64,000 nucleotides of DNA from Phoronis australis. Taxonomy: Eukaryota; Animalia; Phoronida. The stretch spans positions 194,804-258,803 of the forward strand of contig NMRA01000002.1 in NCBI GenBank assembly GCA_002633005.1. The letters run 5' to 3'. The notes under the pieces were generated by a model. It saw only the letters and a list, made by a program, of their open reading frames with translations. It did no database searches and had not been told where the DNA came from. Of this stretch, positions 1 through 31,570 are shown one piece after another. A program made the translations under genes and the position numbers. The number at the start of each line of letters is the position of its first letter. The first letter of the stretch is position 1.

Positions 1-1411
1 GAAGCAATTAACTAGGTCACTTTGACATGTCTGACCTTTAACCTTTGTGCTTTTGAAGAGCTCTGGAATGAATGAAAGTACAGTGACTGACCATGTCACA
101 CAAGCACAGCCATTTCTGAGAACAATGGTGAAAGCCATTCTGTTGTACTACCTAGACAAAGAATGGACTCCCTGAAACCAGAAATAGCTGTCATGAACAT
201 ATGATTTGTTGGTCTTACACGAAACAATAAGGTCGGCACCTCAAGTTTACCGAAAGAAATCCAGAAAAGTGTGTGTTGATTTGGACCGCATAAATTCGTC
301 CTGGATACACCTTCAAACCAAGTTACTGCACAAAAAACAACAAAGTTACTGCACAAAAAATAACCAAAAAAAAATACCTAATGTGCTTTGAATTCACTTT
401 TAATCAATTTGTATTTTTATCAGTTTATGTAATCAAGTTTTCAAGCATCAAAAAATATAACAGATCAACGCTATACCTGAATTACAGTAACCTGGTGATG
501 AAGCTGTCAGCTACTAACGCTATGGAAGGAATGTAAAGAAAGCAGGAGGTACATAATTATTCAACTGAACATGCGACATGGGCAAATGTCATGGGGACTA
601 ATTCAGTTCTTCATGCAACTGTTCCTTGTAATATATCAATGCTTAACTCAATGTTCTAGCGCCCAATTCCATGAGGTATAAGAGATAGTACAACATCACT
701 CTTCCCAGTCTCACTACATCCATGAAGCTGCCAAGCTAAAAAAGTCTACGACAGGGAGAAAGGCTAATAAACCGGCTGTCATGATTATCATCTACTTCAA
801 TGAACCACAATTTTCCCCTCATTATCATTGTGCTAGTACATCGACTGAACTACAATTTTCACCTTGTTGTCAACGTCATTATATCAGTGAATCACAATTT
901 TAATCTTGTAGTCTCCATGAAAGAGGATGCTTATAGACATGATCTGAGACATAATTCACTTCTTTTAACATAATTCAAATATACTGTAACAATACTAAAC
1001 CACATAGGATGTAAGATTAGGTAAATTACTGACGAGAATCATGACAAGCAATCACATATATACTCAAACATCAGTTTTGTGACATAAACCTTCAAACTTA
1101 CTAGAATTTGTATGGAGACATTTCCTGAGTAACTAAATACACCGGTATACCGTTTTCAAACTGCAAACATTTTAAAATAACTTGCAATGGAAACAAATGA
1201 CTCTCAGGAATTTCTGAGGACCAGGTCGCAGATGAGCCATTATTGGAAGTAAGCTTCCCACAATGATTTTATCGAGTTCACAGGAGACTATGTACCATAA
1301 CTGGAGGCTGGAACGAGGCAAGGTAAAGCAACCCAAATGACCAAACTACAGATGAAAAGACTTCCAACTTACCCTTGAAAGCAAAGTCCACTGAGAAATA
1401 CTATAACTTAC

Positions 1412-1561
1412 CATACACCATAAGGTAAGAAAACTTAGCTTGTATACAATCAGTTCCGGAAGAGTCAAGTTAGATGATAAGCTTGTGTGAACGTACAAAA
1501 AGTCATATAATAAGGCATAGAACTGTACAAAGAATATAATTAGAGTAACAAAGCCGTGCAT
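1412..1561 (-). CDS. AIG1/ADTRP family coding exon 1 variant D (50 aa)
   Basis: MHGFVTLIIFFVQFYALLYDFLYVHTSLSSNLTLPELIVYKLSFLTLWCM then ATG|GTAAGT phase-0 donor at Thr+4. Clear paralog of variant C. Acceptor ccttatctgtattag lies 30 nt before the ATG. Confidence 0.8.
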
Positions 1562-3037
1562 CGTGCAAAACAAAGGTCAGTGCATCATTATCTAATACAG
1601 ATAAGGACAAGACAGGTTCAAATAATTAATAATCAGAAGAATTACAGAAAACATGAATGTTATTTTTAAATCCGGTTAAAAATATAATGTAACGGTATTT
1701 CGTAACCTTGCATGTAAGGAGCAAAACTGACGCGGATTAATAACCACACAGTATGTGAAGATTGTCAATGATGTGGTTGCTGTCAAAATGTATGAATGGC
1801 ACATCACCTGAAGCAATGGGTGCCAAAAATTTATATTATCAAAATGGAAAGAATTTTTTACAGGTAATACTATAATGGGTAAATCTGGACAAACAATCTG
1901 AGCATCCAGACACTCCAAGTGCATGGTTGAATTTGAGTCTTTTACCCTGTTCACAAACTACTGGAAAATTGACCCCTTCTTTTGGGCTGAATCGCCAATG
2001 TTTTCACTGTCATTTTAGCCAGTGAAACTGCTAACGTTTTCAACACACTCGTGGTAGCCTAGTGTGAGAAAATCGTCCTTAAAACTCAGTGACATAAAAT
2101 CACGTTCCATCAAAGAAACTTAGACCACTTACCACTGTGAGTGACTATAAAATTTATCTCAATTTGTTCCTTGCTCAGATGAGAAGTGGATTTTGGTCCC
2201 GAAAACTAAGAACCGACAGCTTGACATTCATGAAGACCTCGATCAGTTAATAAAATGACCCACCGCAACCCGGGTCAATTTGTAGAGTCTCTAGCAATAA
2301 CAAACATTCAGCTCTTTTCAAGCTAAAAAATCACATCTATTGTGATTTTAAAAAATTTTGAGACAATTTTCATAACAGTAAATGTTGAAAATCAAAAGAA
2401 GCTTTTGTGACAGAGGGTGAGTTTATAAATATTTTAAGAGTCTGGAACAATGTCAGTTTCCACTTTGTTTCGCCCTGTTGTGTTAAGGTTATGTTGGACC
2501 CTAGAAAGATATTCAAATATCTCATAAACGACTGGTAGTATTCATAAGAAAGTTTCAGATACTATGTGTCACACGCTGTTCTCCAAATTGTTAGGAATTC
2601 TTTTCAGTATGTGCCACTTTTGAATGAGGGGTGTCAAATTAAGATTTTTGATTAGTTTTCTACACATATGTAGACACTAGGTACAAAGTACACAGATTTG
2701 TTGATAAGGTATTAAATAACCTAAATCTATGAAGATATCAGTAGGTAAACCTTAGGTCAGCAACCAACAGGGCTATGAACCTGGTGTTATGCATATCAGG
2801 GGTGTCAAATTACAACTGGTGGCAGCCTGATAATTTTGTGGAGCCTGTGGTCTCATAGTGTTGGCAGGCCATGTGCATGTGACCCACGAATAATCTTCAA
2901 TACTTCAAATGGATATTCAACGCAAACAAGTCATGCTAGATTAATATACCCGTAAGCAGAATTTCCAACAAGCTAAGCAAAATGTACAACCAGAGGGTGT
3001 ACACAATTTTTTTCTGAAAATACACCCAAGTCGTATA

Positions 3038-3381
3038 CAGGCCCTAAATTCCTCGATTTTGGGGCAGAATATCGGCCCAATTCCCCTCTGAAGAATATTG
3101 AAAAATCATGCAAAATTCCACTCATGATGTCCAAAAATTCCTCTCAAATGATTTAAAATTTCCCACTAGGTTCGATTCACTTGTTACTCGCACAGGTAGC
3201 TATTTGAAAGACCACAAAATGTTAGTTTTGGCTTCTCGAGGAAGAGCCTACATGGGGTTTTGCAGCAGGGTGGGGGTGCTTAATTTATGGTGATTGGGAT
3301 GTAACATTTTTCCCTCACTCCGAAATATCCCCATCTCAGAAGGCACAGGTATCTTTCTCCTGTGGATGAACGAGGGCCCTG
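3038..3381 (+). mobile_element. Dispersed ~340-bp non-autonomous element (hAT-like ends)
   Basis: Homologous copies at ~8150-8490 (same strand) and ~32897-33217 (inverted); termini resemble cagggccc/gggccctg. Confidence 0.7.
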
Positions 3382-4178
3382 GTGAAGAAGCAGGTCATAG
3401 TATTAGGCATAGAGACTAGGTGGATGTCTCATAGATCAGCAACTGCCTCTAGTTACCGTACTTCAATAGGACACAGTAAAGTGTATTTAAGTGCCGTTTA
3501 CACTTACAAACTTGGCACGGATCAGCTGACACGGAACAAGTTGTACTAGTGTTTAAACGGACTGACACGGAGCAAATTGACACCGCGGTGACAAATTTTT
3601 GCCACCCGTTTGTGAGTTAGAGCAATTTGCACCTGAACATCTTATGCCGTGTCAATTATAAGTCTAAACGTGAAACTGGAGCAAGGCGGAAAGGATCATC
3701 TCAACTGCGCTTGAGCAATGACCTTCATATGGGTTCTTTGTCACTGCAACTCTCGTCATTTGTAAACCATGTGTGATCCACTCTTTCCAGCCTGCAATTT
3801 CCGTCTTGCCACCGTTAGTGAGTTGTGTGTGTAAATGGTCCCTTGACACGGGTCAATTTGCTCAGTGTCAGTTGCGCAGGGCCAAAAGTTGATGTCTAAA
3901 TGGGACTTTAGTCATAATGTAGGCATTCAGTACAACAAAAACACTTACTGTTCAGTGCTGTTAATAGTCAGGGACAATAGGTCAAGTGCAGCATGGCAAC
4001 ACCTTCCCCCTACTCCCAGTAATAAATATAACAAATGACCGGCTACCAGATTAAAAGGCCTAATTCCATTTTTGTTTTTCAGCACCTTAAACAGGGCAGA
4101 ATGCAGCTTAAAACTCCTGACAAAAAAACTTTCCTAACAATACCTCTGAAAGCAAAGTCTAGTGACTAATGAACCTAC

Positions 4179-4325
4179 CATACACCAAAAGGTAAGAAAC
4201 TTTAACTTGTGTGCAATCGTTCCAAGAAATGTAAAGTTAGAAGAGACCGGGTGGACATACAAAAAGTCATACAATAAGGCATAGAACTGTACAGTAAATA
4301 TAACCAACGTCACTAAGGCATGCAT
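4179..4325 (-). CDS. AIG1/ADTRP family coding exon 1 variant C (49 aa)
   Basis: MHALVTLVIFTVQFYALLYDFLYVHPVSSNFTFLGTIAHKLKFLTFWCM then ATG|GTAGGT phase-0 donor at Thr+4. A possible acceptor lies 37 nt before the ATG. Confidence 0.8.
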
Positions 4326-5386
4326 CTTGCCAGCTTGATCCCAAAGTCCTTTGTGTGCTTATCTGTATTACAGTTTTACAGCAGGTAAAATTAAATGTTT
4401 ATTTTCCATGAGGTCATATTACACTACCAGTGCCACCTATTGGGACAAACTTTGACTTACAATAACAATTTGAGATCGACAGGTTATTGTCACCACTTTA
4501 ACTTAAAGAAGACTGTAAAGCGGTAAACAGGCTAAATTGAAATATTGAAGTGGTTCTCTGCCACTGACACTGAATTCAACCTGCTCACCAGGTATTTTTA
4601 GGGTTTGTTCGTAAAGATTTTTAATTTCTGTTCATATCAAAGCATTTTCTTTTAGTTTCAAAAAATTATCTGTCAACTGCTTGCCACTTCGTCCATTTTT
4701 CTCCCACAAGGGAAAGCACGCTTCCTCATTTGGTACAGCAAGACATATAGACGTAGCAAATTTTTCACGTAAGGAAAATGTCACCTTTGACCTCAAGCGA
4801 CTTCAAGCAACTAACTGCGAGTGCATGCACGCATTATCACAAGTGTGAGGAAGATTAGAAACCATGTTGTAACCATAGAGTTTTTCCATCAGGCGTATTT
4901 CAAAAATCGTGAATTTTGTGATTGTTTCTGGAAGTTTCCTCACAGGGGAAAGTAAAGTAAATTCCGCTGAACTAGACATTGCGAGATGGTACTTTCAACA
5001 GGAATTGTTTTAAAAATATCTTTGACGAGCTTTCGCGATCCATGCCTCTTTAACCCTACACACTCTGATAGTGCTATTAGATCAATGTACCTTTCTTGTT
5101 AAATTTTACTGAACATGGTCAAGTGATTCATTAAATAACACATCGGTAACAACTTAAAAATCAAATTCTTCAGGCTTTCTACTTTCAGTAAATATATCTG
5201 TATTTTTATTGAGCTAAAATCTACAGCTTTTTGGATATTTGGCTGAATACGCAGTCTTGTCAATAACACCCAACATAACCTTTAAGTTGCATATTTACTG
5301 CATGTATGCATGTGCAGCATTGCATATTAATTTGCAAATATAGTTCAACTGGCTGATAGCCATCATGCCTAAAGTTGTGCTAATTA

Positions 5387-5537
5387 GGGCTCAGTTGCAT
5401 AAAACTTCAAAAGTTATCCGCTGGAAAAGTTTGTTTGTTGCATGACATCAGATGCATTGTTCAACAAAAACAGTGTGTCCATGATAATGCGAAGTCATTG
5501 TTGTTATACAGTGTGTAACTTTTATGCAACTGAGCCC
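5387..5537. mobile_element. Small TIR element (Harbinger-like MITE)
   Basis: 18-bp inverted repeats gggctcagttgcataaaa / ttttatgcaactgagccc; TSD not clean. Confidence 0.65.
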
Positions 5538-7103
5538 TGGTTTAGTGCTCCATTGTTCACAAACACATTTTGGCAAGGGAAAAACTAGGCTCGTCGGAAA
5601 ACATTCCAAAAGACATGACAATGAGTTTTATATTTAAATCCTCCTGGGCACCACCACTCATACACGCCACCAATATCACCTCATGGCTTCAATTCATTGT
5701 GGATTCAATACAAATTACGAGCACGTTTACTTGCCTCAAGCTTTCAATTGCCATGATTGGTTTAACATAGGGAAGACACCGGGATCACGTCAGGAAGCGG
5801 TCTTGCAGCATTGCCACATTTTTTTGTACGTGTCTCTGATAAATTACCTTAGAGCACCTGAATGTCCGCAAGCTGCAGACAGCAATGTATTTCAGAACTA
5901 TAAGTCAGAGGCCTGTGCTCAGACAGTAATCTTTTGATCTACCCATGAACCCGGTTCCCTGAGCAGCAAAAGCCCTCTGTCGGGCAATGGCATGTCTTAG
6001 TTTGCGCATTTACTTTGCTACGCACATGCCCATCTGAACACCCTTGATTACCTAATGTTCACAGTATCGAGGGTAAAATATAACAGCAAGAGTCTTGTTT
6101 GAGTTGCCGGCTTCAATGCTAGGAGCTCGATAAAAAAATGAAGTGATCCATGCTAAATCATTTTATTAAAGAAAAAAACAGTGGCTCCTGAGTTTTTGAA
6201 GCCCCATGGTGACTCATTGCCACCATGATGACATGGTGACTTAATTGGCAAGTTTTTCAAATATTTCATTGATTGTTTTCATGAAGATGTTTTTTCTTGG
6301 GGAATTCTTTGGTACGCTATTGCAATTGATGGCCAAGAATACTAAGGTCCCAGCTGCTCCGAAACCCTTCAAAGCAGTAAAACAACGTAGATGGTCAATA
6401 TGCTAGTAGTGAGTTTTGTAGCAGCAGCGAAACTGGTCCTTGGAATCAGGTCAGCGTAAAACTCAGAAAATGTATTTTGATATGATTTACCAGAAAGTCA
6501 CATGTCCGTTACAATTAAAAAATGTCCTCGCAAAAAACATAAAAAGGAATAGTTTGTACTCCAAACTTGAAAACTTAAAGTGATTTCTGATTAGTTGAAT
6601 TTCATTGAACGACTGGAAACATTTGTAGAATAAATCAAAAACATGATTATTACATAATGCTGTAGTACTCCTGTTTACCTGATAATGAATGCATCTGATT
6701 TTTTAAAAATCCGATTAAAGATATTTAGGAAAATGTCCCAAGTTGGCCAACTTCAAAACATCACCTCTCAGAACTGGCCAATAGGATTCCCGTGAAAACT
6801 TCAGATGCTTTTTGCACTATTCTCCAAAGTTCTAAGTTATGATTCGTCTTTAAAATGCTCCACTTCTGTATAATGGCAATCAAAAAACAAAATATTGTCA
6901 CTAAGCCAAATAATGACAGACTGGTAAAAAGACAAAAATCAAATTCTACTAGATTAACACTTCTTTGAAATATACATACTTTTACTAAAGGCCCGTTAAT
7001 ACTAACTTAACTATGGTATGAGTGTAGCGTTGGTGTAAACTGCGAAGTTAATAGTCCTTTTGCAAGTTTATAGCAATAACGCGAGATTATGTGAGACTAA
7101 ATG

Positions 7104-7119
7104 TGACGTCACCGGAAGT
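7104..7119. promoter_or_regulatory. Adjacent CRE + ETS motif (TGACGTCA-CCGGAAGT)
   Basis: Perfect motifs in a locally CpG-enriched segment between AIG1 variants B and C. Confidence 0.35.
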
Positions 7120-8149
7120 GGGGTAAAATCTTGTCGTTTGGCCATTTGCCCGATACGGTAGCAGAGTGTATTCTGTTGTTTACTTCGAACTTTTAATCTT
7201 TTAGTGTGAAAAATGCCAAACAAGCATTTCTGTTATGGCAAATGAAATTCAGATTCGCACTACAATACCTTCCATCGCGTTCTGTACTAATTTCGTCCTG
7301 TGTATTTTAAACAGCAAAATCCGCTCACTGATTAAGTTTTCACCTCGCCAAAAATACATTCTACACCTAAAATTATCACCTACTAAGGCGCTTACATTCT
7401 TCAGTGATTCTTTCTGCTTCTAAACATATCTTTGATGAAGCTTAGCTACGGGAATTCAGGTGACTTTGGCGAAGAATTCCAACTCCACAGTTTGGTTACT
7501 GTTAACTTTGTCCGCGTGCGCGATAACCACAAAGTATTTCAACTGAGTCAGATGAGTAGGCCTGAGGTAAAAGCTATCGCGAGATTGAGCAAAGCGCGTG
7601 ACCTGGCGCGTGACACTTGCACAATAGCATGTGAAAATATCAAGTGAAATTTGTAAGATTTGTGTCCCTTGGACTTTTTGTTTGTCAACAGGCGTGATTT
7701 CACATAACTTCCTCAAAATGGTGCCCGGTGAGAGAAACTCGAGCAAACCGCGAAGTTTTTATGGATATGTTCAAGTTATTTGTAGATAACCATAGGTGAT
7801 GCTGTCATCACCGAAGTAATCACAAGGTGGCGCTGATGCATCCCATGTGCGCTAAGATTTTTTTAACGAGACAATTTGAGAACATTGACAACAATTAGAG
7901 GGTTGTGTCATTACTAATAGTTACTTAATAATATGTTATGTTAGAATTTGTATTTTATTTGCCTAAATACACAAAACTTGCCGATCTAAGGTCCTACATA
8001 ACTATAAATAAAAACACTTTAATAATTAGTTACTAAGTTAATATATATTCTGTTGAAGCAATAGAGTAGTTGATGGACAGTGTGCAGATTTTCCAGCATT
8101 TTTAACCATTTTCTGCCATCACCATGCAATCAAATTGCCACTGATGTGC

Positions 8150-8490
8150 CTGGGCCCTCAATTTTGGGGCCAAACATCGTCCCCATTCCCCTCTGAAAAA
8201 TATTGAAAAATCACATGAAATTTCCTTCATGAGGCCCAAAAATTCCCCTCAAGTGATTGATAACTTTCCCTCAAGGTTCAAATCACTTGTACCCCACACA
8301 GGTGGCAATTTGAAAGAGCACAAAAAGTTTATTTTTGGCTACTAAAGGCAGACCCTATGAGAGCTTTCAAAAGAGGTGAGGGGTGCTATTGATGAATAGC
8401 GGGGGGCGTAGAATTTTCCACTCACCCCAAAAAATTCACCTCTCAGAAGGCACAGTCACTTTTCCCCTCATCGGGTGATAAAGGGCCCGG
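8150..8490 (+). mobile_element. Copy of the 3038-3381 repeat family
   Basis: Shared attcccctctg..aatattgaaaaatca and tctcagaaggcacag blocks. Confidence 0.7.
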
Positions 8491-9182
8491 CGTGCATCAG
8501 GATGATCGGATGATTCACACAAAAATGTCCTGTCTCAAAATGTCCGTGAATGTAAGAAATTGCATCACGTCCCATGTTGTCTTGCACAAAGTGAAGAGAA
8601 AGGCCTTTTGTGCTTTCACTGTGCTGAAGAGTAGTATGTCAAACTTGTTCGCCTGAATCTAAGAAAATGTTCCTTAATCTTAATATAGACGGAAGATATT
8701 GGTATACTTTGATATTATTTAAATAATACATCTTAGCTCGGATAACAGCAACTAACGGCCTTTTTATACATCATGTGCACCAACCTAGACTAACAGGGCA
8801 AGAAAATATTGTGCTCATGATGTCTCTAAGTTCCCAATACCTTTAGCATTGGATTGCAAAGACAGAGAGTCATGAATTAAAATGCAAAATAAATTGTGTA
8901 GGCCTAATACATATGTTGTATGGGGTCAATGCAATGATAAGACGATGCTAAACTCGAAAACCCAAATTTACTTCACAGAACGACAATACTTCACTAAGTT
9001 TAGGATCCAAAATCGCATGGTATAAGGGCTCCAATTAATTTGTCTCCAAAATGGTTACAGAACTACTGAAGGTGTCTCCCTAACCCACACTTATATAAAG
9101 CGCATAGCACTCATTGAGCGCACTGCACTCATTGCAGGGGAGACTCCTACTTCTAGAAACTTCCAAACAAAACTGCACTCAC

Positions 9183-9323
9183 CGCATTTACGAAAGTGAG
9201 ATACTTGAACCGTTCACCGAAGATGCCATCCCAGAGCCCAGGTATGTAAAGATGTTCATAACAATACACATACAAACCAAATATACTAAGGTGGAATGTG
9301 AAAACCAGACCAGTTGAAGACAT
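9183..9323 (-). CDS. AIG1/ADTRP family coding exon 1 variant B (47 aa)
   Basis: MSSTGLVFTFHLSIFGLYVYCYEHLYIPGLWDGIFGERFKYLTFVNA then GCG|GTGAGT phase-0 donor at Thr+4. Acceptor ctgtttag lies 7 nt before the ATG. Confidence 0.82.
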
Positions 9324-10017
9324 GTTAGTGCTAAACAGGTCACAGCTTAGATGATAAGAACCAGTTGTCTGCAGCACCACTTTGACAATGGAAAAAGTTC
9401 ACAATGTAGCGCTAGAGTTGATACTTTCTGCTTCCAGCTAAGTTACATTTTTATTGTTGTTATTGTTGTGTGGGTCACATAAAGTAACAGCATTGACCAT
9501 GAATGATGTTATAAAAAGTGTACCAAATTTTAGAGTAGTAAGTTACATTCTCCTCAGACAAAAATCAACAAGTTGGCTTGTGTCCATAATAGAAGCCATG
9601 CTTGTTCAATACCAAGGAAGACTACTTTACTTGCAGCATACAATTGTTCCTTCTAAGGCAAATTTTCAGTTTTGGGTGTTTCAGTAGTAATACCAAATCC
9701 TGCCAACAGAGGACATGCAGGGTGAACTCTGCAGACAACATTTATAGATGTTCCCTTGGCCACAAGATAATGAAACTCCAAAGGTTATACCAATATTATT
9801 TCAGTTACTGAAAGTTTATATACTGTACTTGTTGATGCACTATTTTATTTTGCAGTGCGTAAGGCTACGTCATAGTACGTGTGTCAATTGGTTAAGCTTC
9901 TTATATAACAGACTTTCCGGTACTATCTGACCTTCTTGACATGAACCGCTATACTGCTAACGCGTACAACGCTAACGATGTTTTTTTATGGAGCCTAGAG
10001 CCTATATCATTGTAAGT

Positions 10018-10246
10018 TTATACTATTTTTCTTTTAAGGCCTCTTGCTCTCGATTGGGCTATCTCTCGGTTGTTCGGAAACGTATCACTTCCCTCTCGAA
10101 AGGGCAATGGAACTATGTAGTGACCATCTGCGTGCTGAACGCCTCGGTTCACAACATGTAGGAATCGTCTGTCGTCTTGGGAGTAGACGGCGTCGTCCTT
10201 CTCGTTAGCAGCATATTCGCAAAAGTCGTATTCGAATAATTTCTGA
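10018..10246 (-). mobile_element. BEL/Pao LTR retrotransposon pol fragment
   Basis: DGHYIVPLPFRE..FPNNREIAQSRARGLKRK matches the BEL/Pao pre-RT motif; truncated at the N at 10247. Confidence 0.75.
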
Positions 10247-10347
10247 NTGAACTCTGCAGACAACATTTATAGATGTTCCCTTGGCCACAAGATAATGAAA
10301 CTCCAAAGGTTATACCAATATTATTTCAGTCACTGAAAGTTTATATA

Positions 10348-10450
10348 CTGTACTCGTCCGGGTTACGGCCCATGCTCGGCTTACCGCCCACCCCTTGTTT
10401 TTTAAGATTCCCAATTTAAGCGCCCTGGGCTGTAACGCAGACCAGTACTG
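10348..10450. mobile_element. Short diverged member of the same MITE family
   Basis: Shares gggttacggcccatgctcggcttaccgccc and caatttaagcgccc; imperfect TIRs with TA flanks. Confidence 0.6.
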
Positions 10451-10656
10451 TAATAAAGCATACAAAAATTTGATACATACAAACATATTGCAGTACTTTT
10501 ATCTTATTCACAACAGTGCATCTTCACTCCACTTAACATACCGTGCATTAAAGGGGCACTTCACTGATATTTAGTTCTCGTTGTTGAGTCCTAAACCAAA
10601 ACGATGTTTAAAAATACAACCAGACTCATCTGATCCCGAGTTGCTTGCCACATGAG

Positions 10657-13600
10657 CCGGCAACTCAAATTACAAGCAATACATACGGTACATCCATTTC
10701 CAACATTCAAAAAGCAGGACACTTCAACCTAGGCCATATAGGAAGGAGAAGATGCATAAAATTGCTAATTGTCCTGCATTTTGAAGGGTTGTCCTGCTAA
10801 TGGGCACATGGCAAAATAGATTTATCACCTAATATTATTATGATATTCCACATGATATATTTATAACCCCTAGCCCAGTTTTTCTGTTGAACTAAAGTGA
10901 CAAACAGTGCAATGGCATTTTGAGGTGTTGAGGTGGGTTTTTCAATCTGTCCTTTTGGCCCCAGCTTTATATCCGATTGTCTCGCTTTTTCAATGCCGAG
11001 TCCCGTTTTCTCATTTTCAAATGTTAGCAAATAGGCACGGTACAAGGTAACAGCCAGAATCACCATGGCGAAGTTTTTTAGTCTTGCTTGTGAAATAGAA
11101 CAGGGAAGTGAGGTAAATAATGTGGAAAAGCACAATAATATAAAATAATATGTAAATTTTGTTGCATGAGTCAAAAAGCGGGACACTGAAGTGCTGTGAC
11201 AGGAGGCGGGACAAAGCTTCAAAAAGCAGGTCCAAATGCGAGGCAGTTGGTAAGTAATTCTTGACATTCATAAAAAGCAGTTCATCTGAATCAGTCATCA
11301 GGGCCAAATTTCCACTACCCAGAAAAATTCCTGGCCAGGGCGCGCCTTATGATAAAAAGTGTACCTTTTTTCAAAAAGTTGCACCCAGAGAGCGCACTGC
11401 TGTAATGTAATTGTGCATTTTTATTTTTTTATGTGCTAGTGGTGCAAAGACGCAGTCCAAGAATATCCCTGGCTACCACAACCAAAAACACAGATGGCAT
11501 TTTCAGTCAATCCTACGAAATGGAACGTGAAATATGGGTAAGTTGCGTGGAAAAGCACAGTAGTACATCAGTTTCGGGCATTTGAATAACCAGAAACAAA
11601 ACAAAACAAAACAAAAAAGAAACACATAAAACAGTTGATTTTCATAATATTGGAGTTCAAAAGCCAGTGCAGTATAGGACCTGAAAGTCTAGCCATGAAG
11701 TGGTTGATCTAGGATATCACAAGGGGGGCCCACCATTTTGTCAGTAAACATTTGCGCAAAGCACGATTTTAGATGTGCATAGCACCGAATGGGGGGAGGT
11801 TGGGAGGGGGGGCGAACCCCCCCTCGGCCGCCAAGAACATTTTTCTGTTTTTTCCTCTAAAAATCAAGCATTTTCCTTGATTCCTGAAGTATTATCCAAG
11901 AAAAAAGAAGCAAAGGAAAAAAATACAGAGAACATGTCTAACTTGAAAAATTGCAATTACCACAGACTCAAACTCATGCCCTGCACCACGATTTCACTCG
12001 TACATTGATTGACATTCTAAGAGACCTACTTGTTTATGGTCCACAGCGTTTGCGCACGAAACCTACTTCTTTTTGTAAAATTTTTACACTTTTCATATTT
12101 TGTGCAATCAGTTCATAACAAATTTGTTGTATTTAAAATAGTCTTCAATTGCCCAAAAGACCAAATCCGTTTTTTTGTGTTGGCATTAATGACGCGGTTG
12201 CTTTGGAAATCGTCTTAAGTTAAGGTTGACAAAGAGAGTAAATGAGTTTCTGGGTGATTCACTAAGGCTTCGATTAAAATTCACATCTTACCAGCAGCTT
12301 GTTTTTTCATCGTCAATCAGATTCCATTTTCTTTAAAAAATGAATTTTCTTCATTGCACAGTGAAGCAGACAATGGAAACGGAGTCGTAGTGTGCAGCGC
12401 CACTGCCGGTCGTCTGAGATATTGCGGGAGAGCCTATACTAAGCCATAGTTCCATTACGATTGCGCTGCGTTCCGAATTTGACACTTGAAATTGGATCTG
12501 AGCCCCCAACACACTAAAACTGCACATATTTAAATCTTGTTTCAGCCGTAAAATGTAACCAGGGTTAATTAATAAACTCAACATTTCTCTACGCTCTTCC
12601 TGTTTTATTTTTTGTGCCCCCCCCCCCCNCATAGTGAATAGATGTATCTTGTAGATCTCTAGAATAAACCCACGTAAAACCGTAACACAGAGTTTTGTTT
12701 GAAAGAGGTTTTCATACACCGGCAACTCAAATTACAGGCAATACATACATCCATTTCCAACATTCAAAAAGCAGGGCATTTCAACCTAGGCCATATAGGA
12801 AGGAGAAGATGCATAAAATTGCTAATTGTCCACATGATATATTTATAACCCCTAGCCCAGTTTTTCTGTTGAACTAAACTAAAGTGAAAAACAGTGCAAT
12901 GGCATTTTGAGGTGTTGAGGTGGGTTTTTCGATCTGTCCCTTTGGCCCCAGCTGTTCTGCACGGTACAAGGACAGAATCACCATGGCGAAGTTGTTTAGT
13001 CTTGCTTGTGAAATAGAACAGGGAAGTGAGGTAAATAATGTGGAAAAGCACAATAATATAAAATAATATGTAAATGTTGTTGCATGAGTCAAAAAGCGGG
13101 ACACTGAGGTGCTGTGACAGGAGGCGGGACAAAGCTTCAAAAAGCAGGTCCAAATGCGAGACAGTTGGTAAGTAATTCTTGACATTCATAAAAAGCAGTT
13201 CATCTGAATCAGTCATCAGGGCCAAATTTCCACTACCCAGAAAAATTCCTGGCCAGGGCGCACCTTATGATAAAAAGTGTACCTTTTTTCAAAAAGTTGC
13301 GCCCAGAGAGCGCACTGCTGTAATGTAATTGTGTATTTTTATTTTTTATGTGCTAATGGTGCAAAGACGCAGTCCAAGAATATCCCTGGCTACCACAACC
13401 AAAAACACAGATGGCATTTTCAGTCAATCCTACAAAATGGAACGTGAAATATAGGTAAGTTGCCTGGAAAAGCACATAAAAATATACAGTGGTACATCAG
13501 TTTCGGGCATTTGAACAACCAGAAACAAAACAAAACAAAACAAAACAAAAATGAAACACATAAAACAGTTGATTTTCATAATATTGGAGTTCCAAAGCCA

Positions 13601-14508
13601 GTGCAGTATAGGACCTGAAGGTCTAACCATGAAGTGGCTGATCTAGGATATCACAAGGGGGGCCCACCATTTTGTCAATAAACATTTGCGCAAAGCACGA
13701 TTTTAGATGTGCATAGCATTTTCCTTGATTCCTGAAGTATTATCCAAGAAAAAAGAGGCAAAGGAAAAAAATATGGAGAACACGTCTAACTTGAAAAACT
13801 GCAATTACCACAGACTCTAACTCATGCCCTGACGGATAGAGCACGCATGCTTTACCACTGCACCACGATTTCACTCGTACATCGATTGACATTCTAAGAG
13901 ACCTACTTGTTTATGGTCCACAGCGTTTGCGCACGAAACCTACTTCTTTTTGTAAAATTTTTACACTTTTCATATTTTGTGCAATCAGTTCATAACAAAT
14001 TCGTTGTATTTAAAATAGTCTTCAATTGCCCAAAAGACCAAATCCGTTTTTTTTGTGTTGGCATTAATGACGCGATTGCTTTGGAAATCGTCTTAAGTTA
14101 AGGTTGACAAAGAGAGTATTATGAGTTTCTGAGTGATTCACTAAGGCTTCGATTAAAATTCACATCTTACCAGCAGCTTGTTTTTTCATCGTCAATCAGA
14201 TTCCATTTTCTTTAAAAAATGAATTTTCTTCATTGCACAGTGAAGCAGACAATGGAAACGGAGTCGTAGTGTGCAGCGCCACTGCCGGTCGTCTGGGATA
14301 TTGCGGGAGAGCCTATACTAAGCCATAGTTCCATTACGATTGCGCTGCGTTCCGAATTTGACACTTGAAATTGGATCTGAGCCCCCAACACACTAAAACT
14401 GCACATATTTAAATCTTGTTTCAGCCGTAAAATGTAACCAGGGTTAATTAATAAACTCAACATTTCTCTACGCTCTTCCTGTTTTATTTTTTGTGCCCCC
14501 CCCCCCCA
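10657..14508 (+). repeat. Tandem near-duplicate (~10657-12628 vs ~12719-14508) with N at 12629; probably uncollapsed haplotypes
   Basis: Colinear near-identical blocks, both ending in poly-C, with duplicated spurious ORFs. Confidence 0.85.
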
Positions 14509-17500
14509 CAGCAATCACATCCTTTTAAAACAATGCAAGTGCTGCCATCTCCTTGATAAGAACTAATCAACCGAATTTTGTGAACATCCATCATGCAGAT
14601 ATAAAAGCAAATGATCAGAAAATCTCAATTGCCACTAGAGGACACCACAGTACCTCCATCTCTACAAAGATCAATGCCAGGCATGCTCATCTCAATAGGA
14701 ACACATCTGAGAAATTTCATAATGATCGTTTAAGTCGATTTCCTGGATAGATGGGTGGACATCAAAAACAGTTGCAAAAATAATAAAAATGGTCATTGGG
14801 AAGTGTGCAGATTAAATAGATCTTTACACGATCAAATTAAATAGTTCTACTTTCTGAAGAAACAACACAAATAGCACTATGCAAGTGCTTCCACTGTAAC
14901 ACAACACAAAGTTTACTTCTGACTGGTCATGTTTGTAAACTTTCCAGAAAAATAGCGACATGAAACTTAAAATTGCCGAGTTTGGTAGCTTGACTAGAGA
15001 ACACTGGCACAGTACTGACACTGACACCTTTTGGCTGTTTACAGAACTAACCAAAATCAATTCTTACGAATTTCTCTATCACATGCAGAAAGTTACATTA
15101 ACTCACAGAAAATTAATAATTGGTGGCGAAATTTACACAAAATCCAAGAAAATAGTTATTTTTGCAGTGATTCATTGAATCTGGCTAAATTCTAATTTGC
15201 ACAATCTAAGATACATGTTGTCCAGTTTGAGTGATTGAACATTTTAATAACAAGTATTTACTCACCATTGGACCTTGTGCCTCATTTTAGAAGTGTAGGC
15301 AATATTGGTCGTCCTAAATTCAAGAATTATCATCAACTACAAACGATCATTCATCTCCATATTACACATTTAGAGACACATGAATATAACGTTTCAGTGA
15401 ATATTTTATACCATTTTCAAATTCTGTTGATACAAAACTCAACTCTGTACCAAATATTTGAAAAATATAATGAATGCCACAATCACCCATGTCCCAATTT
15501 TTAGACTCGAAGAAAATTCAGTTTTGGTCTGTCAAACTTTAGGAACTTTCCCAAACTGGAGAATGCATATATACCGTATATTTAGTATTATGATGACGAT
15601 GATCATCATCGTCATCATAACGCAATTTCATCATGATAGATTGCCCCGAGTCTTTGTTCCATGGATGATGTGATTTCACACCCACCCACACAAAGTTCAG
15701 TGGCATTACCATATTGCCGCGCCATTAGGCCCATGGATGTCAATGCAGAATTTCCATATAAGCCACGAACCTCAAGTCTAGGCAGTATGGTAATACTAGA
15801 AAACTATTTACCAAATTTCTTGAAAATATGCCAAGGAAATCCAAAGATACAGAGGCAAATGTAAAAAAATTGCCATTAGATTAAGCACAGCGGTAGTCAG
15901 AATGAGTGCGGCTATTTGCGAAGATATGTATGAGCCTATGCAAGAGACATTACCTTATGGCTTGAATGCAAAACTCAGGCGCATGTGCCAAAATGCTAAG
16001 CCCTAGGCTAAAAAATGCCAGGGAAAACTCATTATTTTAGACATAGGCCTATGTGCCTAAAGGTGCAGTAATATGGTAAGAAAATGAAAGTCGCTTAATG
16101 ACTCAAGATGTTCATTTTCACTTTTTTGCTCCTTTTAATTGGACTGAAAATGAACGGCCAGATTTGTTGCTCCTTGTCTTAACGCCATCAACTTAATGTG
16201 TTTGGGTGTGAAATTACGTCAACCACCAAACAATGACAATCAGCAGTGATAATGGATGAAAGAGTGTGCACCACAGTCCACTGGAAATGCTGTTTGTACG
16301 GATATTTTATACTCTTTTGAAATTTACCCATGTATTTTGAACAGCCATATCATAAATTGGCACTGTAAAGTCGGACGTTTTTACCTCACTAAAATCACAG
16401 TTTAAATTTAAGATCATAACATTTATGAAAATGCTGAACTGTTATGCATGTTGTCTGCCTACAGTACTTAAATTAGGAACTCAAAAATCAGAAGGTAAAG
16501 CCGAGGATGGTTGTTAAACAAAAAAATTTAAATTTAAAATGAGTGTTAATGCACACGAGCACTGTACTTTTTTCAGCAACTTTTTAAGTAAACCTAATTC
16601 AAAGAATATTTACTCACTCAAAAATGACGACTTTGCAAAAAATCTGATCCCGCATCCTCTTTATGGCGTGTTTCATTAATTGTTTATTTTTATTATCAGG
16701 ATGTGCGAAACTAATGACAACTACATTCAACATCAGCCCAAATGTTTGCCACCCACTATTTAGGCCTACAGTAAGTTTTACTGTAGCCACTGCAGAGCTG
16801 CAAGCTGAGAGATTAAGGAAAAACAGACAGACGAGCAGTTCTGAGGTGATCGCATTCTGTAAAACCTAAGCCACTGCAAGTGCTGATATTTTGGCAGCCC
16901 CAATTTTGGCACAGGCAAACTGTACCCTAGTAATCAACTAAGCTTACATATGGAGACTAATTCCATAATAGAATATGCACCATTAGGCTAACTGTCATGC
17001 AGGCTTTTACAACCATGATGTCACAACATGAATAGGCCTACTCACTATTGTCGTCTATGGCCATAGCCACAAGCACTAACACAAATACTTAATTTAGGCC
17101 TCCTAGTCTATGCCCTCACACTACACTCCTGTACATGCACATCTCACCATTGCACTTTTAATTTCGTATAGTACAGATGTATGGTGAGGGTGCAGTGCAA
17201 TGTTCACAAAGTACACAATGACTAACACTAGACAGTGATCACCGTCTCCCCCCCCCCCCCCNTCCCCCCCCCCCCCCAGTAAAATTCTCCTAGATCCGGC
17301 AGTTCGGGGGCGCGAACATCTTACGAACGAAATCCTGGCTAATACTCTGACGTGGCTCCCCCTAACTCAAAATCCTGGATCCGCCCATGGGTAAGTTGTT
17401 CCAGGAGACTGTTAGGGGTAGGCCTACTAATGAGGGATACACAGCTACATGTGCCAGTGGCAATGCCGATGGACTGGTGGACAATTATAGAATTTGGAAA

Positions 17501-17512
17501 GTTCATAAGTAC

Positions 17513-17665
17513 CTGGTTCCACCAAGTTAGGAACTTCCACCTTCCCATAAATGTTGTAACATAATCTAACGACGGGTTCCCCTCCGCAACGAAAACTCTG
17601 TAGTAAACGCCGTAGAGATTCACGGATAAGAAAATAACGTAAATAATTTCTCCTGAGTTGACCAT
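17513..17665 (-). CDS. AIG1/ADTRP (FAR-17a) family protein, coding exon 1 variant A (51 aa)
   Basis: MVNSGEIIYVIFLSVNLYGVYYRVFVAEGNPSLDYVTTFMGRWKFLTWWNQ then CAG|GTACTT phase-0 donor. It has a TM helix plus GRWKFLT, matching AIG1 YGGSWKFLT (catalytic Thr43). ETS-like CCGGAAG lies just upstream. Confidence 0.88.
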
Positions 17666-18007
17666 TTTGTATATTATGCGCCACCTTCCGGTGTTTTATA
17701 AAGTTATATAGGACCTTGTCGCCAAGTATCTGTATTCATGCAGCTAATTACCTAAAAACTAAAGATTTTACCTCAGAAAAGTGTACCTTTTTGAGAAAGT
17801 CTTTGAAAATTAATTTTTTACTTTATTACAATATGACTTAAGTTGGGTCACGTGACCGTCACGTGCTTTAGTAAAACTAGTAGCAAAAAGAAAGGTACAT
17901 GGCGGCATAGCAAAACACTTAGTGAACGGGGTATTAGTAACGTGGCCAAATTTCGTTTGACAGAGATGTTCAAGATGAAATCCCGAAACGCTGTTACAGT
18001 TTGCTAG

Positions 18008-24672: not shown

Positions 24673-26718
24673 ATGTAACAGTGGAGCGTCAACGCTGCGG
24701 TATCGTGTATGAACGGTTCTTTCGGTCTCTTCGAAGTTATCACCATGGGTCACTGCTGTTGCTAACAATTGAAGGGCAGTGTCGTCGCTAATAGGTCTCT
24801 TATATTGTGCTCGAATAATCTCCAATCAAATTAGAAGTAAATTTTATGTCAATTAGCACATGTAAATTGTCACATTAAAAAAATTTAGCAAGTGCGGGAT
24901 GCATCAGCGCTACCTTGCGATTACTTCGATGACGACAGCCTCATCTAACGTTTACTTTGATGCTGTTAACTACTGAAACTGGTATGAACGATTCAGTTAA
25001 CTTCAGTGTTTACATGGACTCCATTATTGGCTTGAATTATTTAAAGTTTGCTTTAGTTGTAGTCTTAGTACAATAAAGAAGTACCCCTGAAGCTTCCTCC
25101 AGCGTCATAAAGTATGTCAGTTGGAGCTCTCTTATACTGTTTGTAAATAAATCTAAAGCTCAAAACTTGAGGGGATTTGATTATTTGTGCTGATGCTATA
25201 AACACTGACAGATTTTAAGCCATTGAGGATGTTACAGCAATGGGGCCCAACCACTAGGTTTTAGGGAAAAATTTTGGTGCCACCCCTAAAAACAGCATGC
25301 TCACAAACATTTTTGGCTGTGTCCTGGTGGGAATCGGGCATCTTTGGCCCCCTAAATTGCCTTTTTAAAATTAAATTGGAAATTTTCTCAATATAACATT
25401 GGATGTTGATAATCTTTAAAATTAAAATAAAAATTTCATAGATGAGAACAGCTGATAAAAGTTTTCAATAATTGATATTTCATGATTTCACCAGTGTTGA
25501 TTTAGTAGTCAGTCCTATTCTGTCATGGTTGTTATCAGTTGTGCTGTAGCCATGGTATATCCTGGTTGTTCTTATATTGATGAAGTCATATCTATTTTTA
25601 GCACTTTATGTACACAGATGTGTTATCTACTTTGCTATATATGTGTTTTGCAGCTCCCTCTGGTGAGTGTGATGGTACTAGGGGAAAGTCTAAGAAAGCC
25701 AAAACAGGTAATGCCTAATATTCAGGAAACTGCTACTCGCTTAAGAACAGCTGCAGTTAGATTTCTGAGATAATGTTGTTGCCCATTTCTGCATTGCAAT
25801 CAATTGTCTACCCAGGGACTCTATAATAGGAGGGGTGGGTGAGGACATGCCGTTATGGACTGTAATTATTTTTACTGAAGTGCTGTTTTAGATTGATTAC
25901 TAAATCAATTTTTGGCTTTGATAAAAATTGAGAGTGAATTCTACTTTGGATTTTCAATGTTATTGAAAATAAGTAGGGATCTTTTCATGCAACGCCCCTC
26001 ATTTAGGGACTAAGTCCCTATTTATTTTCATTGAATAAATGCTCAATTTTCAGTTATACTATTAGAAAAATTTATCAAAGGGGAGCTAATAATAAAGATA
26101 GACTGATAGAAAAATATTACATCTGTGAGTAAAGGACAACAGAAATATGCAAAAGATTTAGGGATCTTAATTGAGTCCCTATTTGGGACTTTTTCGTGCA
26201 AACGGGCACAGTTTCCCTGCAGTCCTGGAAACAACAACAGTGATGCTTTTCAAAATATTATACTTTACACCATTCTCCTGATATTACTCATGTGATAGGA
26301 GGCTTTACTGTTAAGAATCGAGTTGCTTCCCAGTGTCTGACTCATGACAACCGTACTAGTAACTGGGTTGTTTATATTCTTCCCTGTATTAAAAGTGTTT
26401 CGGGTAAAATCTCGCCAGTTTTCGAACAAAATTATCGGCAAAATTTCATGTTTTTTGTTTTTCAAGGTCCTCTAACTTTGTTGTGAATGCTCACATTTTT
26501 TCAAAATGTTTTCTGATCGTAGCTATAGTTCAGAACCATGGTAAAACATTAATTAGATGCAACATGTCTTTAATGAAAAAGTGAAAAAAGGAAGTTTCAC
26601 TTGTCCACTATATTGTGTCTTGATTTGGTGAGAGTTTACTAAATGTTGCGTGCAAAATGTAACATTTTGTGTTCTTTTTGATGTCAAGATCTTCGAATTT
26701 GTACGTTTGCTTTTTCAG

Positions 26719-27729
26719 GTGGAAAAGGGGCCCGCAAGAGCCCGGTTCTGACTGCAAAGAATGTGCAAATTCCGACGGATAATGTCAGCAGTAATAAATC
26801 GCTGGACGCTCTTTTTCATATCACAGATCTGGAATTGCAGAACATCTCGAAGAACACTGCAACCACTGATCTGTTGGCATCTCGGACACCAGCTTTAGAA
26901 GCTGTTGGCCCAATGCTCCATCAGGTTGTCCGACTTCCTGGCCAGGAGAAAGGGATTGAAAAATACCAGCTGAAGTCAGACTCATTGGAAGAGCAAGGTT
27001 TAAAACTAGTATACACTAAACACACAATGTCCAACCAATACCAGTCAAATCCAGTCAGTTACGGCTCATATCGTCCGCGCGGATTCAAAGAGCAGAGTGG
27101 AGGAACTGCCTCCAATGTTTCTGCCAGTCCAACTGTCCCCATTTCAACCACCACCATTGGTGCTGCTATTTCTCCTCAGATTTTCCCAGAGATCACTGTT
27201 GGCAGGAAGCGAAAGCATCCACAGAAGCCCGGTCGCCATATTTGTCCATACTGCCAGCGTGGCTGTGCCAAGCCTAGTGTATTGCAAAAACACATCCGTG
27301 CTCACACTGGCGAGCGGCCATACCCTTGCGTACCTTGTGGCTTCTCTTTCAAGACAAAGAGTAACTTATACAAACACTGCAAATCCAGAGCCCATGCTGT
27401 AAAGGTAGGACAATCACCCAATTTTGAAGATGCCGCCAAATTTGGAAACGATGAAATATCAGACAGCGAGGATAACGGTAGTTCAACAGACACAGATGCT
27501 GAAGTAGACTCTTCTGCAATACCATTAAGTGCAACACCAGTGCCTCCTATTGACATTAAACCTATTACCACCCTGAGTTCAAATAGTGTGGTGTACCATA
27601 CTGAAAAGGAATACTATGATATTGTTCCTACTACCAATGAAGCTCCATCTGAAGTTCCGTTGTCTGTACAGCCAGAGCAGCAGCCACTCCGGCAGCAACA
27701 ACAGAAGCAACACCAGCAGCAGCAGCAAT

Positions 27730-27765
<36 letters not shown>

Positions 27766-30729
27766 CATTAGTGCTTCCTAAGCCGGTACAACAGCAACCT
27801 GCTGTCATTGTATTAGAGAATGAACCAACAAAATCTCTGATGGCACTATCAGAACCAACTGAAGCTACAGCAGCACTCAGGCAACTGGAAGACATGAGCG
27901 ATGAACTGGCACAGATGGCTGAAAATGCCAATGTGGTGATCACAAGCTCTGTACAAACACTGCCAGACAAACTGGTACGAGTCACAATCCAACTTAAGAG
28001 GCCGAAAGCATCAGATGGCAACACCGCAAGTGACACAGCTAAACCGCAACATCCTTCTGATGTTGGCAGTGCTAAGTTTTTACACTCGATAACAAAACCG
28101 GTTGATCACAGAACAATGAGTTCAGAGATGTTACACAATCGTATTCAACAACTTATTGCAGAAAACCAAGCAATTGTTGACACAGCTCCAATACTGGACC
28201 CTCCCAGGCAGAAACGACTTTCACGCCAAAACAGTGAGACAGCCAAGTCAGGCAACAACTCTCCGAAGAACATGCCATCGACGAGCGGTATGCAAAAATC
28301 TGAACAGTCTTTTTTAGAGATTACCGAGGCCTCGGACCGCCCACCTGAATTCCAAATGAATGCCAAATGGAAGTCTTTTGAACTCGGGCTCATTCCAGAG
28401 ATTCAGATAAGTCTCAAATTGCCAAAACCTCTGGAGAATGCAAAAAATCCGATAGTGCAAGAAGGAAGCGTTATCAAGCAACTACTGAGTGGGCTTGTTA
28501 CGTCACCATCATCAACTCCTACATCACTGGCTCCTCCCATCTTTGTTAATACAGACAAGATTGTTGACAAATATGGACCCTATCTCTGTCATACCTGCAA
28601 TGTATCATTTCGCAAAGACACCAGTCTTCAGATGCATCAGAGGTTCTATTGCCCCGAGCCGGCACAGTCAGAAAATACACTTCAAGCTGCCATCTTGTGC
28701 TTACAGGCTGAGCGAGAACGTGAAATACTTGACAAAGTCTTCCCTGAAGTGCCCGTCACTCCAGTAAGTCCAACAAAGTTTTCGTACAATAGCAATGGAA
28801 CATCTGCTGGCGAAGTTGGCTCCCCTAAGAAAAAGGGAAAACCAAAACTGAGCAGAACCAAGACGAGAGATAGCGAGAGCTCAGATGCGACACCTGTGCT
28901 TCTGTCTTCAAATCCTGCTGCTCCCACTCCGAGTGGTGGCTCCATCATCAAGATGTCTACGCCGTCTTTTCCTGCAAGCGTTCCCATTGGACCAGTCATT
29001 GTGGACAAATCACAGGACCCTTTCCCCGCTGGACCTGTAATTGTGAATGAAATGCACAAAGTTGTCCCTTTCGCATGTTTTGGTGGCAGTCTCCTGAAGC
29101 GATCCTTATCTGTTCCATCGTCGGCATTTTCCGGTGAGTCTTCAGTCCTGACTGCTCTTAAGGCGCAGTGCACCAACTCTTCATCAATTCATTCGAAAAT
29201 AGAGACCATCATCTCCAATACAACCACTTCACCATTAGCCAGATCCATGGCTACAACTGGTGTCCCATTAACCAACCAGCAAGAATCACAGTCAACATCA
29301 GCACCAACAACTTCTTCTTCTGCAAAGAATCTATGGAAGCTCCAGCTAAGGGGGAAACTATTAATGAAACGCTCCATGAGTGTTGAACGCATGCTTTCGA
29401 ATGAAGAGACTGACAAATCTTTCACCCCTACAAAAGTAATGAGCCGACCCAACTTGGCCTGCCCTTTGCCACCAGAAGCCCCGCGCTTAATGAGGAGCAT
29501 CACTGTCGATGCGTTACCTTTATCACGTGCAAGTGTAAAAATTGAACCAAAGAAAATACGTTTCAAACCTATAGCTAAAAGGCCGGAATCTCCAGTTTTG
29601 ACTGCCAAGCCACAGTTGGCTCTTCCCTCAAAATCATCTTCCAAAATTGTCAGATCGCTACAGGTGTTGAGAAATTCCTCTTGTTATGTTGCCACTTCAA
29701 AAGTTAGTCCTGTTAATTTTGTTCCCCTAGCCCAGGCTGGCTCAATGCCTCTCGTGCCAAGTATAATCCAAGGTAGCGTCATTAAAATACCCATGTACCG
29801 TGCTAAAAGTCTGGAAACTGTGACTCTGGCAACAAGCCAGGGAACATGTATAGTGCTTCCACATTTGTCCCTACCTCCAGTTCCTCCACATCACGTGTCT
29901 GTTATACAGACGACTCCGTCAACCACGAAGATGATTGCTTCACCGCGTGGCTCTCTAACGAATACTGTAAAAGCTAAATTCAGTGTGGCATCTGCTGTCA
30001 CAATTGCCAAACCTTTGTCTACTGAAACCAGAGAAGATGCAAAACATTGTACCCCTATCCAGAACATTCCACATATGCTCGCTGGGCACAACCTACCATC
30101 GCTTCGGTCGTCAACTCATGCCACATTCTGCTGCGTCCAGCAGAGTCAACCCATGTACGTCCAACAGGGATCCAATCGGAAGATTTCCATGTATTCCAAC
30201 TGGCGTGTAGCCGCATATAATCCTAACCCTCAGGGTCTGACCGCTGGAATGCTGTTCTCTCTCTACAGATCGCGACAGTATGCGTATGATCCTACTTATG
30301 TTATGTCTAAAGTGGGCAGCTCTCAGCCTGGTTCACTCACACATTCAAGTTACTGGAACTATTACAACAAACTTAAGGCCATTCAGTCACTGCAAGCGTC
30401 GCCATCTGCCACTAATGAAACCAAGCCGATTGCAGCGCCACCATGTGATAATCTTACCGCCAATGCTGTAACAGTGGCTGCAGCTACGTCTCCAGCAAAG
30501 ACAAAAGAGAGCACCACACCTTCAAAAATGAAGAAACGCTTATTTGCCGGTGGTTACAAGTCTAATGATTACTATGTTTATGTGAGAGGTCGAGGTCGTG
30601 GCAAGTATGTCTGTGAAGAATGTGGGATTCGCTGTAAAAAGCCAAGCATGTTGAAGAAGCACATTCGCACACACACTGACCTTCGACCTTACAGCTGCAA
30701 GCACTGTAGCTTCTCATTCAAAACAAAAG
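26719..30729 (+). CDS. shn: schnurri/HIVEP giant exon 2: ZF1-2, polyQ, central C2HC finger, ZF4 and start of ZF5
   Basis: HIVEP signatures KPGRHICPYCQRGCAKPSVLQKHIRAHTGERPYPCVPCGFSFKTKSNLYKHCKSRAH, ISMYSNW and GGYKSNDYYVYVRGRGRGKYVCEECGIRCKKPSMLKKHIRTHTDLRPY. Acceptor tttttcag, donor G|GTGAG. Confidence 0.96.
27692..27764 (+). repeat. CAG/CAA repeat encoding a polyQ tract in Shn
   Basis: QQQQKQHQQQQQYQQQQQQQQQQQ. Confidence 0.95.
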
Positions 30730-31370: not shown

Positions 31371-31570
31371 GTAACTTGACAAAGCACATGAAGTCAAAGG
31401 CTCACTCGAAGCGCTGTATGGAGTTAGGCATTGTGCCAGTACCAACAATGGTTGACGACTCTCAGATTGACAATGAGGCTCTGGAACGTCAGCAGGAGAT
31501 CTCCAGGGAAAGTAAAATTTTGGAAGACAAGCGGGCGCTTAAGACAATGAAAGCAGAATTAAAGGATCAG
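31371..31570 (+). CDS. shn: schnurri/HIVEP exon 3 (end of ZF5)
   Basis: GNLTKHMKSKAHSKRCMELG completes the HIVEP finger. Acceptor ccag, donor CAG|GTACAG. Confidence 0.93.

Follow-up and report, generated by a model that had tools for sequence, protein, structure and literature searches.

Can one gene for a membrane lipid hydrolase carry several interchangeable versions of the exon that encodes its catalytic nucleophile? This question is raised by a 64,000-nt stretch of the Phoronis australis genome (contig NMRA01000002.1, forward-strand positions 194,804 to 258,803), here called the window, whose own positions are used for all coordinates. On its minus strand lie four short coding cassettes, A to D (Table 1), related to AIG1 and ADTRP, which were reportedly described by Parsons and colleagues in 2016 as Thr/His enzymes that hydrolyse FAHFAs (hydroxy fatty acids esterified with fatty acids). 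Our findings indicate that, with high probability, all four cassettes serve a single membrane hydrolase gene of the AIG1/ADTRP family as alternative first exons; C and D are spliced onto a shared exon 2, and A and B likely are as well.

Each of the four cassettes opens with an in-frame ATG. Then come a hydrophobic segment, whose best 19 residues average 1.35-2.01 on the Kyte-Doolittle scale, a variable loop, the motif (F/Y)LT and, four codons further on, a GT donor in phase 0. A sequence-only reading of this DNA had proposed four same-strand cassettes of 47-51 codons, each with its own ATG and its own Thr and each ending at a phase-0 GT exactly four codons past that Thr, and every one of these features was confirmed in each cassette. 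When the 3401 six-frame open reading frames (ORFs) of the window were ranked with a profile of 57 heads (the N-terminal parts up to this joint) from outside the window, the four cassettes took the top four places with E values, in order of rank, of 1e-10, 2e-10, 2e-7 and 2e-4, followed by a fifth-ranked ORF at E 0.64. Cassette D has a Ser where Lys is usual, three residues ahead of the Thr. A candidate fifth cassette at 19033-19170 on the minus strand (E 0.64) was rejected; it has a motif resembling the residues ahead of the Thr, but neither the Thr nor a donor, and is likely a chance match or a decayed copy.

Table 1 Features of the Phoronis australis window; positions are those of the window.
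Feature	Positions	Strand	Codons	Last residues	Donor	Head-profile E value	Remarks
Cassette A	17513..17665	-	51	KFLTWWNQ	GTACTT after 17513, phase 0	2.3e-10	Most upstream first exon, coding part
Cassette B	9183..9323	-	47	KYLTFVNA	GTGAGT after 9183	1.7e-4	First exon, coding part
Cassette C	4179..4325	-	49	KFLTFWCM	GTAGGT after 4179	1e-10	First exon
Cassette D	1412..1561	-	50	SFLTLWCM	GTAAGT after 1412		First exon
Start of common first intron	1..1411	-					Extends beyond the left edge of the window
Two TATA-like words	17694..17710	-					Upstream of A, 45 and 35 bases from its ATG; putative promoter words
HIVEP/Schnurri-like zinc-finger gene	26682..42906	+					Large ORFs 26682-30779, 31307-31645 and 41704-42906; context, outside the array

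Pfam on its own is too weak to place such short exons, since none of the four bare cassettes matched PF04750 and only one of 192 minus-strand frames gave a weak match (cassette B, model positions 5-49, E 0.017). Queries with single cassettes likewise returned nothing from a homologue search with A, from the ESM Atlas or from PDB sequences. The alignment of the cassettes, used as a profile against 1.84 billion representatives, recovered four proteins, three of which match PF04750 (FAR-17a/AIG1), and a second profile search yielded 14 full-length PF04750 proteins. Judged from sequence, the four cassettes are thus AIG1/ADTRP-family first exons that encode helix 1 and the Thr motif. A Thr at the catalytic position is kept in all four. 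Two frog AIG1 proteins carry the motif Thr at residue 43 and NHxxH at residues 131-134, in agreement with T43 and H134, which are given as the catalytic residues of AIG1 in the available part of PMC8123165. The cassette Thr therefore corresponds to T43 and NHxxH to the H134 position; H134 falls in the constant part of the protein, which bears out the earlier assignment of the cassette Thr to T43 with the His further downstream. The Thr served to select the 61 heads that were compared, and the three residues preceding it are conserved among them (Lys in 49, Phe/Tyr in 60 and Leu in 59). The numbering of the catalytic His differs between the available parts of two papers, H181/H149 in PMC8394805 vs H134/H131 in PMC8123165; the frog numbering fits H134, and the mismatch probably stems from different isoforms.

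If each cassette were the start of a gene of its own, exons for the remaining protein should lie between them. We searched the minus strand left of position 17700 with 12 sliding 30-residue profiles derived from 126 family bodies, and no AIG body exon was found (maximum 9.2 bits). A held-out Lingula body, used as positive control, reached 34-77 bits in ten of the 12 pieces, but the last two scored 19 and 9.5 bits; this search therefore covers the extreme C-terminus poorly. A smaller body profile had the same outcome, with no body exon in the window. The sequence-only reading had noticed no exon 2-6 motifs between the cassettes, and the profile search agrees with it, firmly for B, C and D, which sit within N-free sequence, and with the caveat of three single Ns between A and B. 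The locus thus presents tandem homologous coding first exons without downstream exons of their own, again firmly for B-C-D, where tandem paralogous genes are ruled out by the N-free stretch together with the missing body exons.

Where, then, do the transcripts continue? Reads from three raw RNA runs (X1-X3) were mapped to positions 1-10000 at 90% likeness, where repeat-derived reads crowded the result and no cassette junction was among the rows listed, and to positions 1-4500 at 97% likeness. In the second mapping, a total of 34 reads leave the donor of C at 4179 (7 in X1, 12 in X2 and 15 in X3), all into one 30-base sequence, and six reads of X1 leave the donor of D at 1412 into the same 30 bases. 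The junction reads of both cassettes had an agreement of 1, with no read fitting two places, and the exon depth at C and D lay on the mate orientation expected of minus-strand RNA. Within the window, the shared 30 bases had no match at up to three mismatches. Their reverse complement encodes LFQTFYFGLC in frame 0, of which up to nine of ten residues match the starts of exon 2 in the family. No C-to-D joint was among the listed joints. With the same 30 bases following C and D, C splices past D, and a single exon 2 that lies outside the window serves the two. C and D are hence spliced separately and in frame onto one identical exon 2, and this exon and the His-bearing body are located further left of the window or in unassembled sequence.

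With respect to the coding sequence, C and D differ by a nonsynonymous divergence (dN) of 0.20 and a synonymous divergence (dS) of 0.64 over 49 codons, which gives a dN/dS of about 0.3. The remaining five cassette pairs are near synonymous saturation (dS 1.45-2.5), yet they have retained frame, Thr and donor. The variable exons are therefore likely kept by purifying selection, although 49 codons are a small sample. The sequence-only reading had named expression of a single cassette and neutral decay of the others as the outcome that would speak against it; C and D, both spliced and with a dN/dS of about 0.3, do not behave in this way.

Could C and D be two alleles of one exon that the assembler set in tandem? 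Apparent artefacts of this sort do occur elsewhere in the window: tandem near-copies at 10657-14507 (about 1.9 kb) and 33233-38577 (about 2.4 kb) are 91-94% identical, each lies across one N (12629 and 36083, respectively), and they are probably two haplotypes joined by the assembler. C and D, in contrast, are 75% identical in their DNA at a dS of 0.64 and have no N between them. Moreover, reads of the single run X1 map at 97% likeness or better to both exons, none of them fitting two places, which refutes this explanation and leaves it a negligible chance. Some variation between the runs and the assembly is seen within the array. In X3, all covering reads differ from the assembly at 4262 and 4299 in exon C (one Leu-to-Met change and one silent change), and a 35-base intron deletion occurs at 3004-3040; these differences are probably alleles. 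In X2, a few reads of opposite orientation cross cassette D (1201-1800, depth below 1).

Several observations weigh against one gene with four functional heads. Cassette A (17513-17665) lies outside the read-mapped span 1-10000. Cassette B had a low minus-strand depth of about 1 in X1 and of 0 in X2 and X3 in the mapping of this span, and no junction from its donor was among the loose-end rows listed for it. The junction reads of D are restricted to X1, with none listed in X2 or X3. Exon 2 is known from 30 bases, which end short of the catalytic His, so that the His of this gene itself was not seen in the reads. C and D deviate from the GGK-K motif ahead of the Thr, and their activity is therefore not assured. 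The single Ns between A and B (10247, 12629 and 17262) could conceal sequence, and the one at 17262 is without any flanking overlap to account for it. No start-site pile-up is listed for C or D. Finally, no solved relative was found by sequence in the PDB copies, and Foldseek gave no match at E 0.001 or better.

The points concerning A and B would fit an arrangement in which A, and perhaps B, is either a dead copy or part of a separate paralogous gene, the remaining exons of which are concealed where single Ns join the sequence, so that only C and D share a body. Separate paralogues are indeed known in this family, such as the pair in Babylonia, whose bodies are 69% identical. We nevertheless consider this arrangement unlikely: neither an N nor a body exon is present between B and C, and A and B retain ATG, open frame, Thr and donor despite a dS of 1.45-2.5. 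In addition, two of the three Ns are placed between overlapping near-copies (98% and 94%) and hence look like haplotype overlap, not like a large gap, and Lingula has five heads for one body. The proposed variable-constant gene, in which all donors join one common acceptor, is accordingly supported by junction reads from 4179 and 1412, but not by any listed from 9183; A and B are likely joined to the same exon 2.

We also considered whether the cassettes, instead of being first exons with promoters of their own, are second exons used one at a time and preceded by a spliced leader or by a common leader exon without coding sequence. The missing start-site pile-up at C and D would agree with this, as would the thin 5' coverage of short reads. 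C, however, has 34 reads at its 3' joint and no listed 5' loose end, and its RNA depth ends by 4350 and is 0 from 4351 on, which favours C being a true first exon. Furthermore, no joint to upstream sequence is among the listed joints in 1-10000, and TATA-like words are present just upstream of A. A shared leader thus appears improbable, even more so than a separate origin of A. The 300 bases upstream of the four cassettes have no clear mutual similarity and no shared promoter motif; the best pair, A-B, was matched by nine of 200 shuffles. These unrelated upstream regions suggest one promoter per cassette, although no start-site pile-up is listed. Past the donors of C and D (4111-4178 and 1343-1411), about 55 intron bases are still alignable, with a score above all 200 shuffles, while the upstream regions are not; they are a duplication remnant or a splicing element.

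Under the model of alternative first exons, a promoter of its own most likely precedes every cassette, and a transcript would be spliced from the donor of the exon in which it begins to the acceptor of exon 2. Cassettes further downstream would be removed together with the intron, as seen for C skipping D. Each isoform would thereby obtain its own first helix, loop and catalytic-position Thr, and the shared body likely supplies the catalytic His. The array likely grew via tandem duplication of exon 1, with C and D as the most recent pair.

For other animals, we compared 27 same-species protein sets (24 invertebrate, three frog) that were picked by hand by isoform labels or shared locus tags, so that counts among them are not a frequency; the sets are database gene models, and the comparison covers proteins and labels. 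In 18 of the 24 invertebrate sets, from five phyla, two to six different Thr-bearing heads occur per body, and the joint is exactly four residues past the Thr. Ptychodera has six heads (one was missed by the search pattern, but has the Thr at the same place), Lingula five, Haliotis rubra, H. rufescens and Ostrea four each, and Patella vulgata and Gryllus three each. Two heads were found in Owenia (a pair with bodies 96% identical and without isoform label), Liolophura, P. caerulea, H. asinina, Dreissena, Sinanodonta, Zootermopsis, Anabrus, Bradysia, Musca autumnalis and Drosophila erecta. Heads that share a body are 20-63% identical. A second Thr-bearing head was sought without success in Artemia, Littorina, Babylonia (the set of two paralogues mentioned above), Mytilus trossulus, Homalodisca and Macrosteles, and in all three frog sets. 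At the DNA level, a Logan contig of 1303 bases (P0001) encodes two tandem cassettes of this type. Among the invertebrate genes with annotated multi-head isoforms is also Drosophila CG3625. The layout is therefore not peculiar to this genome, since RefSeq and GenBank isoform annotations of many invertebrates show it. Other isoforms of the family vary in different ways. P0027 (Musca autumnalis X2) and P0200 (Eleutherodactylus X2) have an unrelated Thr-less N-terminus joined at or near the same exon-2 joint and, by their sequence, would lack the nucleophile, and the leafhopper isoform pairs P0006/P0019 and P0007/P0025 have a common head and differing C-termini.

A tree of the 61 heads over 55 columns grouped C and D of the window with Lingula X4/X5 and the first P0001 cassette (96/91). 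One head class is common to chiton, oyster, zebra mussel and mussel (96/92), another to termite and katydid. Long branches predominate among the heads, stable classes are few and the majority of forks are open; grouping the window's four heads as one clade was not rejected (p-AU 0.161 in the approximately unbiased test). The tree hence does not decide between one old origin and repeated origins. By the position of the window heads in it, the source animal would probably be a lophotrochozoan.

What would an exchange of the head change in the enzyme? In a snail homologue as modelled by AlphaFold (mean predicted local distance difference test score 81), a helix at 3-26 is followed by a low-confidence loop at 31-42, and Thr48 starts a helix at 47-68 that is mostly encoded by exon 2. 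The variable part is accordingly predicted to comprise helix 1 and a flexible loop leading up to the Thr, where helix 2 starts. The earlier notion of swapping half the active site goes too far: the variable residues number about 50 of 240, the motif round the Thr stays conserved, and the differences lie in helix 1 and the loop ahead of the Thr. As the motif is conserved in 61 heads, the swap would alter helix 1 and the loop by the nucleophile more than the chemistry. Besides tissue control through promoter choice, the variable part may tune access or preference for lipid esters, with about even chances for and against. The isoforms may thus differ in tissue or in lipid-ester substrate.

Given the same gene structure, the function of the array could still be regulatory alone, with promoters providing a tissue or stage pattern and the coding exon copied whole, so that chemistry and substrates stay the same. 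The conserved residues round the Thr, the diverged upstream regions and the many long branches with few stable classes all agree with this. Heads on one body are, however, merely 20-63% identical, and head classes common to distant species (96/92 and 96/91) suggest distinct constraints. We consider purely regulatory use a substantial possibility, somewhat short of an even chance. The broader proposal is that a variable-constant AIG enzyme locus predates the protostome-deuterostome split, that invertebrate bilaterians diversify this HIVEP-linked lipid hydrolase through exchange of the first exon with the nucleophile, that helix and loop set the lipid-ester preference, and that vertebrates stayed with single heads and used whole-gene paralogues (AIG1, ADTRP and AIG-L) instead. 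We hold this view only tentatively and deem it rather unlikely in its entirety. If true, natural isoform sets of such an old locus would map the specificity determinants of a fold for which no solved structure was found in the PDB copies searched.

The genomic surroundings agree with the family assignment. Head to head with the cassettes lies a HIVEP/Schnurri-like gene, which includes a 1366-codon ORF with a poly-Gln run and separated zinc-finger pairs. Residues 1308-1352 match 1BBO (MBP-1) with 74 bits; we take MBP-1 to be HIVEP1. According to the supplement of PMC8394805, HIVEP2 and AIG1 are also arranged head to head in cartilaginous fishes. The HIVEP-like neighbour thus provides supporting synteny for the AIG1/ADTRP identity, though it is no strict requirement for it. 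Elsewhere in the window, a 398-codon ORF at 58481-59674 on the plus strand has a galactosyltransferase domain (PF01762, E 1e-19), a 960-base N gap spans 51140-52099, and a 33-base near-perfect palindrome is found at 15588-15620.

The locus is a real, expressed variable-constant AIG gene whose structure is firm for C and D, and the layout is apparently widespread and unremarked. In the open literature we found no description of alternative first exons or promoters in the AIG family, CG3625 included; subscription papers and the supplements of exon surveys lie outside this scope and may list CG3625. The sequence-only reading had called the architecture undescribed for the family, which holds for the papers found, yet the isoforms are already annotated in RefSeq and GenBank. 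A family-wide phylogeny discarded alternatively spliced sequences before analysis, according to the available part of PMC8394805, and so could not see a multi-head layout. Research on metabolic disease deals with AIG1 and ADTRP as hydrolases of FAHFAs. An identical body with two to six divergent heads offers natural swaps for probing the role of helix 1 and the pre-Thr loop in substrate preference, and Drosophila CG3625 provides a genetic model.

Compared with human and mouse AIG1 and ADTRP, the Phoronis gene shares the PF04750 family, the Thr (T43/T47) and the head-to-head HIVEP neighbour (available parts of PMC8123165 and PMC8394805). Vertebrates differ in having the separate paralogues AIG1, ADTRP and AIG-L, without a second Thr head in the three frog isoform sets. 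The annotated AIG1-like isoforms of invertebrates (CG3625, Lingula X1-X5, Ptychodera X1-X6, Haliotis and Ostrea), which are gene models only, have the same joint of head and body, and the number and class of heads vary by lineage. Among enzymes, variable-first-exon clusters are known mainly from vertebrate glycosyltransferases, and here the layout is seen in an unrelated membrane hydrolase from five invertebrate phyla. As presented in the accessible text of PMC1885805, vertebrate UGT1A, UGT2A and GCNT2 form such clusters, there called vertebrate-specific, in which tandem homologous coding first exons are each spliced separately to common constant exons and yield differing N-terminal parts; variable exons were gained in a lineage-specific manner, as in the AIG arrays. 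The AIG array agrees with this class in its tandem exons, in shared splicing for two of four and in signs of selection, and it may do so in separate promoters. A catalytic residue on the variable exon is not new either, since H39, the proposed catalytic base of UGT1A1, lies in the variable part like the Thr here (PMC1885805). In UGT1A, however, the variable exon encodes an acceptor-binding domain in full, including H39 and D151, the two proposed catalytic residues (PMC1885805). The variable part of the AIG array amounts to about 50 of 240 residues, Thr and His are divided between a variable and a constant exon, head and body meet within a predicted membrane helix, and such arrays occur in invertebrates. 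For UGT1A it is established that promoters are separate and substrates differ, and the same may hold for the AIG array. Clustered protocadherins and chelicerate Dscam, too, place tandem 5' cassettes on a constant 3' region, the protocadherins by promoter choice, but these are adhesion receptors with large arrays (accessible text of PMC4835542), whereas the AIG gene encodes an enzyme and its array is small, with two to six heads.

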